From: a virus
Reading direction: 5' to 3' (one strand)
IMG/VR virus record: IMGVR_UViG_3300043438_001221
DNA length: 64,000 nt
Shown: piece after piece, positions 13,284 through 36,228 of the stretch
Layout of the letters: every line of letters begins with the position of its first letter
How positions within the stretch are numbered: position 1 is the stretch's first letter
Position numbers and translations under genes: made by a program
The notes under the pieces: generated by a model
What the model was told of the DNA's origin: nothing
What the model saw: the letters and a program-made list of their open reading frames with translations, nothing else
Databases searched by the model: none

Positions 13284-13432
13284 TACTTCACCTTTACTAC
13301 GTGCCACTTATCACCATCAATACCACAAATTTTTGCAAATTCAAGAACCAATTTAGCAATAAACCGAAATGGGTAAGATTTTGTGGATTGAAGGCGTTGC
13401 TTTGTCTTTTTATGCTGGATTTCGTATTTCAC
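13283..13432 (-). CDS. Small hypothetical protein (49 aa, not in ORF track)
   Basis: GTG AAA TAC... VKYEIQHKK...WHVVKVK*, downstream of motif promoter, stop coupled to next gene. Confidence 0.55.
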   Translation of the reverse strand: MKYEIQHKKTKQRLQSTKSYPFRFIAKLVLEFAKICGIDGDKWHVVKVK

Positions 13433-13442
13433 ATCGCTCACT

Positions 13443-13461
13443 ATTGTATTCTAGTTTTTAA
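13443..13461 (-). promoter_or_regulatory. TTAAAAACTAG-nn-TAYAAT promoter (copy 1)
   Basis: Minus strand TTAAAAACTAGaaTACAAT; repeated motif. Confidence 0.65.
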
Positions 13462-13508
13462 CCGATTACTCACTACATTCTACTTATCCAATACCACAGA
13501 GTATTATT

Positions 13509-13537
13509 CAACTTAACAAATTCTTGTGAAAAGTCTA
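13509..13537 (-). promoter_or_regulatory. Sigma70-like promoter facing away from tnpB
   Basis: TAGACT...TG-t-TAAGTT; TGTTAAGTTGAA is identical to the promoter near 29219. Confidence 0.5.
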
Positions 13538-13597
13538 TAAAAATTGTGAATTGATTGCCTGATATAAACATCTTTAAAAAAAGTTTCACCGAAAGAC

Positions 13598-13603
13598 TAA
13601 ATA
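13598..13603 (+). promoter_or_regulatory. T4-like late promoter upstream of tnpB
   Basis: gacTAAATA, same context as late promoter at 15435. Confidence 0.55.
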
Positions 13604-13624
13604 AGTATATACACACTATACTAA

Positions 13625-14788
13625 ATGTTGAAGGCAATTAAAATCAGACTCTATCCAACTCAAGAACAGGAGAATTACATCTCCCAATTATTGGGTTCCT
13701 GTAGGTTTGTCTATAATAATTGTTTGGCATTGAAAATTAAAAATTATAACGACGATAAGAAATCAACATCTTTTAAAGAGCTTGGTAAGCATCTTACGGG
13801 CTTGAAAAGCCAAGAGGAAACAATATGGTTAAAGGATGTTCATTCCAAAGTTCTACAACAGTCTCTTATCAATCTGGAAGCTGCATATAAATCATTTTTC
13901 AAAAATGGCGCAGGATTTCCAAAATTTAAATCCAAGAGAAATAAACAATCTTGTAGGTTTCCAGTGGACGCAATTGGAAAAATAAATGGTAATAGAATCA
14001 ACATTATAAAACCTCTAAGAAATATTCATTTCAAATGCTCCAAACGAGACGAAACACATCTTAATAATTTTCAAGATGATATAAAATCAGCAACATTATC
14101 CAAAAATGGGTATGGTCAATATTATTTCAGTGTTCTGGTTGAGATACCAATTCAAAAGGAATTACCATTGTCTAATAAATCGATTGGCTTGGATGTTGGT
14201 ATCAAGACTTTTATCGTTGATTCCAATGGACATGAGTGGGAAAATATCAAGATAAAAAGAAACAATCAAAAGAAACTTGCCAGACTCCACAGACGGCATT
14301 CTAAAAAATTAAAAGGGTCTAAGAACAAAGAGAAATCAAGAATCAAATTAGCAAAATACCATGATAAATTATCAAACATAAAAAACCATTATCTTCATCA
14401 GGTGTCCAATAAGATTATAGAGGAAAACCAACTCATAATCATTGAAGACTTGAACGTTTCAGGAATGATGAAGAACCATAAATTGGCAAAGTCGATCCAA
14501 GAATTATCTATTTTCAGATTCAAAGAAATCCTTACTTACAAATGTAATTGGTATGGAAGGGATTTGATACAGATAGATAGATTCTTTCCAAGTTCTAAAT
14601 TATGTGGGAATTGTGGTTATAAAAATGACAACTTAACCTTAAAAGATAGAACTTGGAAATGTGGGGAGTGTAATACGATCCACTCAAGGGATTTAAATGC
14701 CGCTAAAAACATCCTCAAGGAAGGATTAAGAATTTCAAATATAGGGCTGAGTTCGCCCGAATTTACGCTTCAGGAGATTTGTCAATAG
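13625..14788 (+). CDS. tnpB: RNA-guided endonuclease TnpB (IS200/IS605 family, solo)
   Basis: N-terminal KIRLYPT HTH, GFPKFK, RuvC D (GLDVG), E (IEDLN), D (RDLNAA), Zn finger CGNC..CGEC. Confidence 0.95.
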   Translation: MLKAIKIRLYPTQEQENYISQLLGSCRFVYNNCLALKIKNYNDDKKSTSFKELGKHLTGLKSQEETIWLKDVHSKVLQQSLINLEAAYKSFFKNGAGFPKFKSKRNKQSCRFPVDAIGKINGNRINIIKPLRNIHFKCSKRDETHLNNFQDDIKSATLSKNGYGQYYFSVLVEIPIQKELPLSNKSIGLDVGIKTFIVDSNGHEWENIKIKRNNQKKLARLHRRHSKKLKGSKNKEKSRIKLAKYHDKLSNIKNHYLHQVSNKIIEENQLIIIEDLNVSGMMKNHKLAKSIQELSIFRFKEILTYKCNWYGRDLIQIDRFFPSSKLCGNCGYKNDNLTLKDRTWKCGECNTIHSRDLNAAKNILKEGLRISNIGLSSPEFTLQEICQ

Positions 14789-14865
14789 ACGGGTCGTTGA
14801 ATGAAGAACAAAATGTTATTTCATGACTTTTCATAAGATAACGGAACTATTTCACATCAGTTAAA
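14700..14865 (+). ncRNA. Predicted TnpB omega/reRNA (boundaries approximate)
   Basis: TnpB RNAs overlap the gene 3' end and right end; hairpins gggc..gccc (14744-14758) and gttat..ataac (14815-14842); guide predicted from ~14848. Confidence 0.55.
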
Positions 14866-15039
14866 ATTATCTTTATCTCTGAAAATATTGTCAATTTCCT
14901 TCAAACACTTTTCAACCCCTTCACTAGATAATGCGATATTTCGAGCAATATAGAGTCTATTGCAGATATCCTGCAATTCCCCAGCTTGATCGATAAAATC
15001 CATCACCATTTCCAATTCAAGTGTATTGTCGTCTTCCAT
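14857..15039 (-). CDS. Small hypothetical protein
   Basis: ORF begins 7 nt after motif promoter. Confidence 0.6.
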   Translation of the reverse strand: MEDDNTLELEMVMDFIDQAGELQDICNRLYIARNIALSSEGVEKCLKEIDNIFRDKDNFN

Positions 15040-16290: not shown

Positions 16291-17305
16291 CGATCAATTT
16301 CATTTTTACCGTTGCCGCCAAACCTTTGCAACTATTCTTTACAATCAAATCAACTGGATATTCATCGTGTTCGTAAGCCATACATAGAGCATTCAAGTCT
16401 TTAAACCTCTTTCCATCGTATTCTGGCCAAATAAACACCTTTTCCCCCATTTCTATGAGCTTTAGGGTCTTTTCCCTCGCTGTTTTATCGATCCATTGGC
16501 TATCCAACACCCAAATCCTCTCAAAGAACTTCAGACCATCCATCTGTTCCTGTTGGTATGCGGTGAAAAGCTGATCTCCCTTGGTAATACCCCCCAGACC
16601 AAGCCCATTTCTCACGAAACAGGCATCCAATGGACCTTCGATAATGAAAACCTTATCCAGATCGGATGAAATGCGCTCAATACCAAAGATACTCTTATCT
16701 CCCCCATCTTTTGACAGATATGATGGAGACTCATCATCCATCAATCGTCTGCTTTGGTAATAAACAATCTTACCCGTCTCGTCCTTGAATGGGATCACCA
16801 GACGCTTATCATGCTTTTCATCCTTCAAAGAGATATAAAAGGCATCTGGACGATTTACAGCGGTATCCAGTCGCCTTTCCTTGATGTAAGCCAGAGCTTT
16901 TTGGACGATCTTGTTGGTCTTGTAGTAATCCGTCTGATTTTTATCAGATAAATTGATGCTATCTATCGGCAGGGATGATGATTTGGGTTTGTCGGGCTTA
17001 TCTTCCATGTCCATGACATTGATCATCCCATAATTACCCTTCTCAATCTCATCCACCATCTGATTGAATGATAATCCCGACACTTCCTTGATCCACTTAT
17101 AAGGTTTGGATGACCATCCGCAATTATGGCAGAAAATATTGTCGTTTTCGGGAATGTAGAAGCATCTTTTCTTTCTCCCCCAGCTTTTTCCCTCGCGGCA
17201 TATGGGACAGCAACATTGATACGTGTTTTGTCCGGTGTTATGTTGGGGACGATACCCAAACTCGTAGAATTTGGACACCACATAGTCAGACGGAATCTCA
17301 ACCAT
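16280..17305 (-). CDS. gp61: DNA primase (T4 gp61-like)
   Basis: Zn finger CPIC..CHNC, RLVIPF, YQSR, TOPRIM IEGPLDA; start taken at MVEIP (341 aa). Confidence 0.92.
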   Translation of the reverse strand: MVEIPSDYVVSKFYEFGYRPQHNTGQNTYQCCCPICREGKSWGRKKRCFYIPENDNIFCHNCGWSSKPYKWIKEVSGLSFNQMVDEIEKGNYGMINVMDMEDKPDKPKSSSLPIDSINLSDKNQTDYYKTNKIVQKALAYIKERRLDTAVNRPDAFYISLKDEKHDKRLVIPFKDETGKIVYYQSRRLMDDESPSYLSKDGGDKSIFGIERISSDLDKVFIIEGPLDACFVRNGLGLGGITKGDQLFTAYQQEQMDGLKFFERIWVLDSQWIDKTAREKTLKLIEMGEKVFIWPEYDGKRFKDLNALCMAYEHDEYPVDLIVKNSCKGLAATVKMKLIVKN

Positions 17306-17573
17306 CCTCTTTTGCAAGGACTTCGTATTGGGCTTCGATAACGCGGCGGATATTTTTTGGGAGATGTTCAACGAATTCGATAATCTCATGTTCTTTGGCA
17401 AAGTCAAATTTTTCCATCGGAACTCTTTGGATTTTTATATCTGGAACGGAGAGAAACACGTAATCATCCCCATCTTTTTTAATGAAATTGAATAATTGCC
17501 CGACAAAATCTCCTGTTTGGACTGCATAAACATCGCCTTTTTCGATTTTTGGTTTTTTAAAGATGTTTATCAT
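17298..17573 (-). CDS. Hypothetical protein
   Basis: ORF overlapping primase start. Confidence 0.6.
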   Translation of the reverse strand: MINIFKKPKIEKGDVYAVQTGDFVGQLFNFIKKDGDDYVFLSVPDIKIQRVPMEKFDFAKEHEIIEFVEHLPKNIRRVIEAQYEVLAKEDG

Positions 17574-17715
17574 ATTTTTCAAGTTCTCTATCTAAACAAT
17601 CAACGCAAAACGTCCTACCCCACTCTTCAACGTGTAATAATTGGTATATATCCACCCCACAATTCGGACACTTATCGTCAAATGTTTCAATTTCGTATAT
17701 GGTGTAATTTTCCAT
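17557..17715 (-). CDS. Small Zn-finger protein (52 aa, not in ORF track)
   Basis: MENYTIYE...CPNC...FCVDC...KHL*; ATG 6 nt after motif promoter. Confidence 0.6.
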   Translation of the reverse strand: MENYTIYEIETFDDKCPNCGVDIYQLLHVEEWGRTFCVDCLDRELEKYDKHL

Positions 17716-33720: not shown

Positions 33721-36228
33721 TCATTCTCCAAACAAGTCGTCCAATTCTACTGTCAGATTTTCCGATGGTTTTCTCAATTTCCAACCCACTGCTTCATAAA
33801 ATCTCTCAATCGCAGCATAAAACACTTTAGCAAACATTTTCTCATAGTCAACCGTGAAAATGTTATCAAATTCTTCTGGCCAATCACCCTTGAATCCGAT
33901 CATATCCAAATTGTATTTGTTGGGCTTCTTAACATACACCATGCGAACCTTATCCCCTGATTTGAATTTCTCGTATTTGGAACCCCATCCATTCTGTTCC
34001 ATGATCATGTCATGAAAATAAGCAGCTTTCAGATGAGATGGCATACCTTTCACAGTGTTCATACCGTTACATCTAGCCGAATATTCGGAAAAATTATTCA
34101 TACCCGAAATCTTGGAAATCTCAGCAATGGATAGGTTCTTGAATTCCTCATAAGCCTCGTTGAACATGTCGTTGGTTTCCTTCAGCGATTGGGAAATGAT
34201 CATATGTTCAATAACTTTCTTAACATATGGCTTTACCTTCTTGGGCATCGTGGTTTTCACCACATCAACTCCCCGATACTTGAACTTATCCACCTTGGTT
34301 CCCTCATCATCCAGAACATGGAGGACATAATATTTCTTACCAATGAAGATTCCGCTATCACAGATGGTTTCCCGCTTGAACACGAAACGGGGATCAGTGC
34401 TTCTCAGGGCTTTTCCAGCCCAATCGGTAATCCGTTTATTAATATAATCCTCAATATCCTCACACAATTCATAAAATTCATCCGATTTTGAATCCAAACC
34501 AAACATTTTAAGGGAAACAAAAAAGCTATCAGTATCCCCGTAAACACAACTTTGTTGCAAAATTGATTCCGATATATTGGGAAATTTTTCCCGCACGTAA
34601 TCCTGAAACAAATCATTGCTCTTCTTGATTACCGCTTGTCCTGTCAATGTCACCGATGTTCCAATATCCTCATCCCCAAGGGGTGCATATTTGTTGAGCA
34701 TATAACCATAGAGGGAATTGAGATGGATTTTATAAGCGTATTGGATGCTATCAAATTTCTGTTCTCCCTCTTTATCTCCATTCTTACGACATTCCATCAT
34801 CTTGTTTTTCATCTCCTTCCGCTTGGTGTAAAGATTGTCTAGGAATTCGGGAACCAGACCACGTTTCTTCTGAGAGAAGAGAAATCCTGCTTTAGTTAAT
34901 GCCGCTTGCTCCTCATCAATAAATTTCTTGAAGTTCTCAGGAGTCATCTCAAACAACCTACCCGATACATGATGGATTTTCACCTTATCTCCATCCTTCT
35001 CAACCCTTCCGATTTTCGTTTCGGGGGAGAGATTTAAAGAAATCATCACAGATGGGTATAGGGAGTTGGCATCAAAGGATACGATGTTCTCCGCAAAGCC
35101 TATTTTTGGCTCTGCTACATATCCACCGGGAGCGCGGTAGTCCGTCACAGGACGAATGAACGTAGGAATGTATTCCCCCCGCATACGGGCGCGTATGGCG
35201 ATTGCGCCATTCATTGCTGGGAGTGTTCTGATCGCGCTTTCCAGATCACACAATCCGGTATATGCGAGGAATCTGATAAGATTGATATATCCTTTTTTCT
35301 GATCAAGCCCTACCACGATTTCCACATCCCGTATGCAATAATCGGTGAAAGTGTGCCAATCATTTTTCGCCAGTTCCCATAGATTACCATCATGTGCAAC
35401 CTTATTGATTCCCAATTCAACCTCCCCAATATTATCCAATTTATACGATTCCTGTTTCTCCAGATTGAACTTCTGATAAATCACATAATAATCAAGAATT
35501 GATAGCCCTTCAATCACATACTCCTTGGAAGGCATCCCAAATTTACCATTTGGATTGGTCTTTTCATAAATCCTACCCGTTGGGGACAGCTTATCAGCCC
35601 ATTCCTTTCCCAATTGGAAAGTGATTCGATTCACGAGATAAGGAACGTCAAATGCTGCTATATTCCACCCACTCAACACATCAAAACTTTCCTTTTGGAA
35701 GTATTTGATGAATGTTTTGAGCAAATCTTCTTCGGATTTACACCATGTATATTTCACATCATCTCTAATGGTGTGGAAGTTCTTCAACCCAAAGACATGA
35801 TACATCTTGGATTCAGAATTATAAATTGTAATCAAATTAATCACCGATTCCGCCAATTCTGGTTCTGGAAATTTATCAGAAGATGGACATTCCAAATCCA
35901 GATATGCCACTTTTAAAGGATGTTGGGAGAAATTAACATCCTCGCAAACCGACCAGTAATTATCAATCAGGAATTGCTGATATGGTGGCAGGTTTTCATA
36001 AATCCGCTTGATATTACTATCCTTGACAAAATTATTCCTGTCGTATGAACTGTTGAAACATTTCTTCTCTAATAAAGTTCCGTATATAGACTTTTTATCC
36101 CCTTTTTTATTCTCCAATAAAATATAAGGTTTAAAATCGTGTTCTTCCCGAATACGTTCCCCATTTTTATCCCACGAGAATAAATGGATTTTACGTGATT
36201 TGTTATCATATACACAATTTCTATACAT
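33721..36228 (-). CDS. gp43: Family B DNA polymerase (gp43-like)
   Basis: Exo DLE, GWNIAAFD, YCIRD; pol SFDANSLYPS, KIHLNSLYG, YGDTDS, KKYY. Confidence 0.97.
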   Translation of the reverse strand: MYRNCVYDNKSRKIHLFSWDKNGERIREEHDFKPYILLENKKGDKKSIYGTLLEKKCFNSSYDRNNFVKDSNIKRIYENLPPYQQFLIDNYWSVCEDVNFSQHPLKVAYLDLECPSSDKFPEPELAESVINLITIYNSESKMYHVFGLKNFHTIRDDVKYTWCKSEEDLLKTFIKYFQKESFDVLSGWNIAAFDVPYLVNRITFQLGKEWADKLSPTGRIYEKTNPNGKFGMPSKEYVIEGLSILDYYVIYQKFNLEKQESYKLDNIGEVELGINKVAHDGNLWELAKNDWHTFTDYCIRDVEIVVGLDQKKGYINLIRFLAYTGLCDLESAIRTLPAMNGAIAIRARMRGEYIPTFIRPVTDYRAPGGYVAEPKIGFAENIVSFDANSLYPSVMISLNLSPETKIGRVEKDGDKVKIHHVSGRLFEMTPENFKKFIDEEQAALTKAGFLFSQKKRGLVPEFLDNLYTKRKEMKNKMMECRKNGDKEGEQKFDSIQYAYKIHLNSLYGYMLNKYAPLGDEDIGTSVTLTGQAVIKKSNDLFQDYVREKFPNISESILQQSCVYGDTDSFFVSLKMFGLDSKSDEFYELCEDIEDYINKRITDWAGKALRSTDPRFVFKRETICDSGIFIGKKYYVLHVLDDEGTKVDKFKYRGVDVVKTTMPKKVKPYVKKVIEHMIISQSLKETNDMFNEAYEEFKNLSIAEISKISGMNNFSEYSARCNGMNTVKGMPSHLKAAYFHDMIMEQNGWGSKYEKFKSGDKVRMVYVKKPNKYNLDMIGFKGDWPEEFDNIFTVDYEKMFAKVFYAAIERFYEAVGWKLRKPSENLTVELDDLFGE

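Follow-up and report, generated by a model that had tools for sequence, protein, structure and literature searches.

The stretch of viral DNA analysed here, 64,000 nucleotides of the IMG/VR record IMGVR_UViG_3300043438_001221 (called the window in the following), is part of the genome of an uncultured T4-like phage from a water source, and it raises the question how an intact tnpB gene can hold a place between two small phage genes, A and B, when no transposase gene is detected in the same window. We propose, with a confidence slightly better than even, that tnpB and its omega-RNA form a phage-resident, transposase-less element, which acts by RNA-guided 'intronless' homing, or by retention, at the junction of genes A and B. 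This proposal starts from the anatomy of the element, its boundaries, the empty allele, the selection on tnpB and the structure of the RNA, as shown by sequence comparison.

The element, its RNA and the empty allele

The gene, the RNA that overlaps its end and the signal in front of it are located as follows.

13625–14788, plus strand: tnpB, 387 amino acids, with the RuvC residues D190/E274/D356 and the zinc finger C327/C330/C346/C349
14701–14850, plus strand: 3' part of the omega-RNA scaffold, with a terminal hairpin at 14815–14842 and the conserved 3' end ACGGAACTAT
14847–14850, plus strand: CTAT, the final bases of the right end, where homology to the related elements L049 and L129 stops
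14851–14866, plus strand: predicted 16-nt guide, the first bases past the right end, covering the stop and last codons of gene A
13597–13605, plus strand: box CTAAATAAG, similar to a late promoter, which precedes tnpB by 20 nt; L049 and L129 conserve it

The guide length is that of ISDra2 TnpB. The protein matches the TnpB Pfam families HTH_OrfB_IS605, OrfB_IS605 and Cas12f1-like_TNB (E-values of 8.8e-25, 2.7e-21 and 2.6e-17, all above the cut-offs) and displays the RuvC core, the zinc ribbon (TNB), the N-terminal helix-turn-helix, the D-E-D triad and the CxxC...CxxC pattern of this group. ISDra2 TnpB (8EXA/8H1J) is the closest natural solved structure by sequence, with residues 3–373 aligned at an E-value of 1.6e-63. 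An earlier reading of the locus, made from the letters alone and called the sequence-only reading here, had described the triad as intact, and D190/E274/D356 indeed align to the catalytic motifs of 9yyg, an ISDra2-like chain of known structure; the alignments to the natural ISDra2 chains include these residues as well. The same reading saw no tnpA in the window, and none came to light: neither a Y1 transposase nor a resolvase stood among the Pfam families listed (the best 25 of 32) for the 88 larger open reading frames (ORFs), and tblastn with the IS607 serine TnpA of the relative L075 gave no match in the window, which is only part of the phage genome. Neither the Y1 (HUH) TnpA that characterises IS200/IS605 nor the serine TnpA that characterises IS607 was thus found in the window.

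Comparison with the closest elements analysed at the DNA level, L049 and L129 (79% and 78% amino-acid identity in TnpB), places the right end at 14850 and the start of the guide at 14851, because the homology to both ends at this position and because about 15 further relatives share the terminus ...GAACTAT, or a variant of it by one or two bases, followed by unrelated flanks. The sequence-only reading had let the guide begin at 14848, which is superseded by these breakpoints; its proposal of a right-flank guide matching the empty allele stands, since a guide taken from the right flank necessarily matches an allele in which this flank is uninterrupted. An alignment of the last 150 nt of 13 sequences yielded a consensus scaffold of 15 base-pairs, seven of them with compensatory changes, and the terminal hairpin is present both in this consensus structure and in the single-sequence fold. 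A search of the element's RNA against Rfam returned no matching family. From the covariation and the homology breakpoints, a structured RNA is predicted to overlap the 3' end of tnpB, to end at the right end of the element and to run on into a guide derived from the flank.

The ratio of nonsynonymous to synonymous substitution rates (dN/dS) of tnpB amounts to 0.064 against both L049 and L129, and to 0.09 between these two, the three copies residing in three different contexts. The gene is under strong purifying selection. As for its expression, TAAATA occurs within 45 nt of 15 of the 38 plus-strand starts in the phage window, compared to about 0.9 expected, and probably is the core of the phage's late promoter, a reading that leans on the late promoters of T4.

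The site of insertion becomes apparent from the two neighbouring genes and from a related phage in which they are directly joined.

14857–15039, minus strand: gene A, 60 amino acids, with a TGA stop at 14859–14857; 87–88% amino-acid identity in L043–L047
13283–13432, minus strand: gene B, 50 amino acids, taken from the ORF list, with a GTG start at 13432–13430; 86% amino-acid identity to gene B of L043

Six IMG/VR contigs carry the neighbouring genes. One of them, L043, encodes flanking proteins 82–98% identical to those of the window and is without tnpB, its gene A stop being followed by one base and then by the ATG of gene B. In the window, the insert is bordered by an exact 11-mer, TATTTCACATC, which lies at 13425–13435 and 14848–14858 as the sequence-only reading had noted, and for which about 0.003 occurrences are expected by chance (estimated from how often exact 11-mer pairs occur in the window, for a geometry in which one copy adjoins the right end and its partner lies at most 300 nt upstream of tnpB). 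When the two copies are collapsed into one, the window shows the gene A stop, a single base and the GTG of gene B, whose codons continue as in L043, and the ATG of gene B in L043 aligns with the GTG of the window. The earlier prediction that the collapse would join genes A and B is therefore borne out by the architecture of L043. By this comparison, the window and L043 represent filled and empty alleles of the same site, and the insert relative to L043 measures 1423 bp, made up of an element of about 1346 bp and a 77-nt patch to its left.

The left side of the element is less sharply defined, and the candidate TAM comes from there.

13505–13624, plus strand: inferred left end of the element, with homology to L129 from 13566 and to L049 from 13594
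13501–13504, plus strand: GTAT before the inferred left end, in register with the GTAT of L049 and L129, the same short motif following 7 nt on
13424–13427, plus strand: GTAT, candidate TAM of the ancestral (collapsed) target, directly preceding the guide-matching bases in the collapsed allele

The element is taken to span 13505–14850, with an uncertain left boundary and an interior of this left end that gives no significant alignment. Between L049 and L129, identity reaches 86% in a block that starts about 125 nt upstream of tnpB, and GTAT stands just outside this block in the same register in both. The combined left-edge pattern, which was in part fitted to the data once they were known, has an expectation of 0.12 per window; in the 189 loci that were compared, it picks out the left edges of L049 and L129 and matches five times elsewhere. 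In 16 of 26 relatives GTAT occurs 96–138 nt upstream of tnpB, a zone of 43 nt, against about 6 expected by a rough estimate. Two further loci are in line with this: L075, 62% identical and linked to a serine transposase, has GTAT between the neighbour's start codon and the element, and removal of the L129 element from GTAT to its right end fuses two ORFs in frame, for which chance alone gives one in three. GTAT, a motif of only 4 nt, fits the window at both of its sites as well as L049, L129 and L075. We consider it an even call from these alignments that GTAT is the TAM. The sequence-only reading had expected the TAM within GGATTTCG (13417–13424), which found no support, the best candidate being the GTAT at 13424–13427 that overlaps the repeat. 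If GTAT is correct, the motif is present in the collapsed allele and is replaced by CTAT at the right junction of the filled one.

A left-end hairpin resembling the one at the right end was not found in the element, where only a 14-nt imperfect inverted match occurs. Separately, we observed an exact 18-nt inverted match between 13564–13581 and 17553–17570 (E-value of 0.002 against about 1 Mb, possibly chance), of which the second copy lies in the 5' coding part of a minus-strand gene at 17298–17582, and part of which is also conserved in the left end of L129.

Homing or passive residence

Which motif serves as the TAM, when tnpB is expressed, whether the empty allele is cut and the element homes, and whether patch or element came first are matters of inference from these observations. 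Late in infection, TnpB would be made from the phage late-type promoter and load its own 3' RNA. The complex would then be directed to GTAT followed by the sequence of 14851–14866 in the insert-free A/B junction of co-infecting or sister genomes and cut it, and phage recombination, involving the UvsX-like RecA and a gp46/47-type nuclease, would repair the break with the filled allele as template, so that element and patch are copied in together. The filled allele would be immune, as its right junction reads CTAT instead of GTAT, while its left junction offers GTAT with only eight matching bases. These eight are contiguous, and the match amounts to 11 of 16 bases in all; the sequence-only reading had given the self-match as 11 nt and had considered it likely too short to cut, which we retain. 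ISDra2 TnpB needs a seed of about 12 nt (PMC8612924), and by analogy the filled left junction would stay below the seed length for cutting. Elsewhere in the window, no other TAM-plus-guide site with up to three mismatches was found. A third exact copy of the 11-mer at 35750 (35747–35760) was considered as a target and rejected as unrelated, since it is preceded by GTA, with GTAT offset by one base.

For bacterial chromosomes as well as for plasmids, homing of TnpB elements by cut-and-copy is established (10.1101/2023.03.14.532601; PMC10690162; 10.1101/2025.02.20.638934), and cut-and-copy retention has been shown experimentally for the IS607-family IStron system of Clostridium botulinum (PMC10690162). 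For phages, homing of transposons into co-infecting genomes is listed by a review of 2026 among its categories, but with no example, under the name 'transposon non-restorative homing' (PMC13565253, Table 1), and a phage-borne tnpB is already known from the cyanophage A-1(L) (10.64898/2026.02.14.705889). What the present locus adds is an intact, selected and transposase-less TnpB cassette in a T4-like phage, for which a relative displays the empty allele and which combines a non-canonical end with a compensating patch.

Several observations weigh against homing. No empty allele with a cleavable target was found among the sampled relatives and databases: the search for related phages with an empty junction, suggested in the sequence-only reading, recovered the expected architecture in L043 but a diverged target, with GTAG and three mismatches in guide positions 5–8. 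The junction of L044–L047 has several target mismatches, more than L043, and a 7-nt tandem duplication (ATGAAAT twice). Exact-pattern scans of IMG/VR gave no match for the collapsed junction or for the alternative empty junction, and one match for the bare target, in an unrelated phage and consistent with chance. A single filled allele is known. The TAM candidate is an island of 4 nt, no consistent TAM motif is shared by the subgroup L001/L011/L057, and neither the left end of the window's element nor the patch gave a significant local alignment when compared to L049 and L129, be it to their left ends or to their flanks. Finally, the proposal does not account for a spread of the lineage to further sites in the absence of a transposase.

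The A/B junction is a hyperplastic spot. Gene B is absent from L048 and from ten more distant relatives, so that these provide no further junctions. As a speculation, the 7-nt duplication in L044–L047 could be an escape allele or a footprint. Two other features of these four contigs (L044:5575-6010, the same in L045–L047) were recorded: an internal deletion leaves gene B with 11 codons and keeps gene A, and an extra small ORF for a membrane protein, which is absent from the window, follows the shortened gene B.

Among the alternatives, the one that survives best, although we consider it unlikely, is that the element is a passive passenger, mobilised once by a transposase acting in trans from the host or another element and kept because it became harmless after the patch, with TnpB serving retention after excision or nothing and without any homing from phage to phage. 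The failure to detect either a transposase in the window or a cleavable allele among the sampled relatives would be expected under this explanation, but it leaves open why three transposase-less copies in different contexts should display a dN/dS of 0.06, and why the guide-RNA scaffold should be conserved and covarying and the phage late-type promoter box conserved as well. Conventional transposition is within reach of the lineage, as the 62% identical L075 still sits beside an IS607 serine transposase (Resolvase, E-value of 1.5e-17), and a phage tnpB identical to host copies has been reported from cyanophage A-1(L) (10.64898/2026.02.14.705889). A bacterial reservoir, on the other hand, is hardly visible, the clade being nearly absent from bacterial genomes. 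At a threshold of at least 55% identity it is common on viral contigs (14 of 42 IMG/VR loci) and also frequent in freshwater metagenomes, while 185,579 species genomes contain one full-length locus, L129, and a disrupted copy, L178. L129 is itself phage-like, although its contig was binned with a Flavobacterium genome, and it points to a Flavobacterium-like bacterium as the probable host of the phage. On five contigs (P0121) the TnpB shares 90% identity or more with that of the window, and other relatives stand at 85% and 79%. Among the INPHARED phages, tnpB has only DNA matches of about 67%, to Lak megaphages, and the flanks have no match.

The 77-nt patch and the 11-bp repeat

The sequence-only reading inferred that the element restores the disrupted start of gene B. 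The left repeat copy does supply the GTG, but it forms the edge of a patch derived from the phage and is not made by the element.

13425–13435, plus strand: left copy of the 11-bp repeat, holding the gene B start codon (minus strand)
14848–14858, plus strand: right copy of the 11-bp repeat, made of 3 nt of the right end and 8 nt of flank
13428–13504, minus strand: patch of 77 nt, of phage origin, absent from L043, L049 and L129
13443–13461, minus strand: copy of a promoter-like 19-mer within the patch, 8 nt from an ATG and 10 nt upstream of the gene B GTG
13472–13498, minus strand: degenerate copy of the gene B 3' region, matching 13296–13327 with 24 of 27 aligned bases identical and a 5-nt gap

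The patch begins with 8 nt that repeat the initial bases of the guide and that, read on the minus strand, form the start of gene B; it continues with a 7-nt spacer, the 19-nt motif, the gene-B-like stretch and GTAT. Five near-exact copies of the motif occur in the window (at 13443, 15047, 16272, 17722 and 19674) compared to 0.25 expected, and each of the four outside the patch precedes a minus-strand ATG by 6–7 nt and overlaps the stop of the gene before it. Judged by this placement, the motif is the phage's own promoter-like signal. The local alignment score of the degenerate gene-B fragment was equalled by 4 of 5000 shuffles. In IMG/VR, an exact-pattern scan for a source of the patch (the gene-B 3' end followed by the motif) returned a single, unrelated match, and one for a promoter-plus-start junction returned none. 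Regulatory cassettes of the promoter-early stem-loop (PeSL) type, reportedly described by Arbiol et al. in 2010 as short repeated promoter units at hyperplastic gene junctions of T4-type phages and proposed to serve recombination or module shuffling, are a plausible type of source for the patch, although the sequence of the motif differs.

Read in this way, the 11-bp repeat appears as the edge of the patch and not as a footprint of transposition. The patch would provide gene B with a promoter-like signal and a start codon, and the 1423-bp unit as a whole would leave genes A and B intact. If only the element is removed, the repeat grows to 12 bp and the start of gene B is written twice. Two histories may have led to this arrangement. 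In the first, a canonical insertion after GTAT would have severed the start of gene B, which a promoter-bearing fragment later restored; in the second, a decayed second copy of gene B with its motif would already have been present and the element would have inserted at its GTAT. Both histories respect the rule that neither IS200/IS605 nor IS607 elements duplicate their target. The idea that the promoter motif sets the left boundary of the insert to the right of 13461, which would make the collapse wrong, was ruled out by the directly joined genes A and B of L043.

The repeat could in principle be a true target-site duplication, for instance from capture at a staggered break with fill-in, in which case 13436–14847 entered as one piece including the promoter motif. 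We regard this as improbable. In its favour, the insert is bordered exactly by the two copies, for which chance is no explanation, and the tandem duplication of L044–L047, at the same junction and without an insert, could be a footprint of such an event. Against it, the conserved right end accounts for three bases of the right copy, and on its left side the insert consists of phage sequence that related elements do not share. The cut site of TnpB, established for ISDra2, furthermore lies far from the TAM and not at the position of the repeat. Elements of the IS200/IS605 and IS607 families, moreover, make no such duplication (PMC10690162, PMC13565253).

There is, finally, little probability that the nuclease destroys relatives with an uninterrupted junction without being copied, in the manner of the marker exclusion for which T4-type phages use free-standing endonucleases (PMC13565253, section 3.2), or dampens gene B by binding GTAT and 8 nt exactly at its start, where a partial target with a perfect TAM candidate lies, since cutting combined with strong phage recombination would normally lead to copying as well and so overlaps with homing, eight matching bases are few for stable binding, and there is no evidence that gene B needs regulation.

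Related elements, phage setting and implications

With homing as the favoured explanation, the locus can be placed among known systems. It resembles ISDra2 TnpB of the IS200/IS605 family (PDB 8EXA, 8H1J; PMC8612924) in its domains, RuvC triad and zinc finger, and in an RNA scaffold that shares sequence with the 3' end of the gene and continues into the flank from which the guide is taken; it differs in lacking a nearby Y1 transposase and a recognisable left-end hairpin, in its right end CTAT and predicted TAM GTAT (TTGAT in ISDra2), and in its residence in a lytic-type T4-like phage with a late-type promoter box. With the IS607 IStron of C. botulinum it would share, if the TAM is right, the discrimination of self and empty allele by one base, TGGG versus TCGG there and GTAT versus CTAT here (PMC10690162). 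Unlike IS607 elements, the group of the window has AACTAT after ACGG and ends in TAT, and no GG at either junction, no transposase and no intron are present. The canonical GGG/ACGG ends occur only in the group of 41–56% identity, and the GG core and G-rich TAM of IS607 are not seen in the window, where TAT stands at the junctions and the right end reads ...ACGGAACTAT. This changed right end, found in a clade that has relatives linked to IS607, hints at a switch of the TAM, with possible interest for genome editing. The free-standing homing endonucleases SegB, SegF and Mob of T-even phages, which perform 'intronless homing' (PMC13565253), offer parallels in a nuclease gene between conserved neighbours, a junction that is filled in some phages and empty in others, probably late expression and the expected co-conversion of flanks; in contrast to them, the target here would be read by a flank-derived RNA instead of a protein, and self-immunity would come from splitting the TAM from the target instead of from sequence differences. 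The gene drive by TnpB in multicopy plasmids (10.1101/2025.02.20.638934) likewise cuts element-free copies of the replicon and copies the element into them, but has been demonstrated for plasmids, the phage case being only a concept (PMC13565253, Table 1).

Some observations on related loci stand apart from this argument. The serine-transposase-linked loci L079–L098 have clean IS607 ends (e.g. L083:2040-2110 and L083:4230-4290), the left flank ending in GGG before GTTAACCAACAG and the right end reading ...TTGAACGG, always followed by T. In L129 (L129:1187-2923 and L129:3111-4046) the element interrupts an ORF whose two parts join in frame when the element is taken out, and a GIY-YIG/NUMOD3 homing-endonuclease-like gene follows about 400 nt downstream of the TnpB element. 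On a Saccharibacteria-labelled contig (L178:1501-3127), an ORF of 283 amino acids rich in cysteine lies between the N- and C-terminal parts of a TnpB relative.

The window has a G+C content of 38.6%, and its 88 larger ORFs include gp32, a RecA/UvsX-type recombinase, a family-B DNA polymerase, a DnaB-like helicase, baseplate Gp10 and PhoH; according to Pfam, a SegE-type GIY-YIG endonuclease is also encoded among them. The latter and a protein with a TnsA-like endonuclease domain, both elsewhere in the window, suggest that this phage hosts several selfish-nuclease genes. From 11.9 to 28 kb extends a block of small minus-strand genes, inside which tnpB lies on the plus strand, the insert being antisense to its two small early-region neighbours. 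The longer form (T/C)TAAATAA is found 4–10 nt upstream of many plus-strand starts, for example those at 935, 3987, 7996, 15446, 29266, 47632, 55414 and 60044.

On a tentative note, we suggest that a lineage of TnpB resides in T4-like phages as a transposase-independent, RNA-guided and free-standing homing cassette, which has adopted the phage late promoter type and a changed end and TAM, and which spreads by cut-and-copy together with its co-travelling patch. As far as can be judged from sequence, this natural locus is a good candidate for RNA-guided homing from one phage to another, and it provides a concrete test case, with a filled allele, a relative of empty architecture, a precise guide, a 4-nt TAM prediction and a built-in self-immunity. 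It would further illustrate how a tightly packed phage operon can accommodate a selfish insertion once a small patch, built from a regulatory repeat of the phage itself, has removed the harm, and this bears on the evolution of hyperplastic regions in T4-type genomes.

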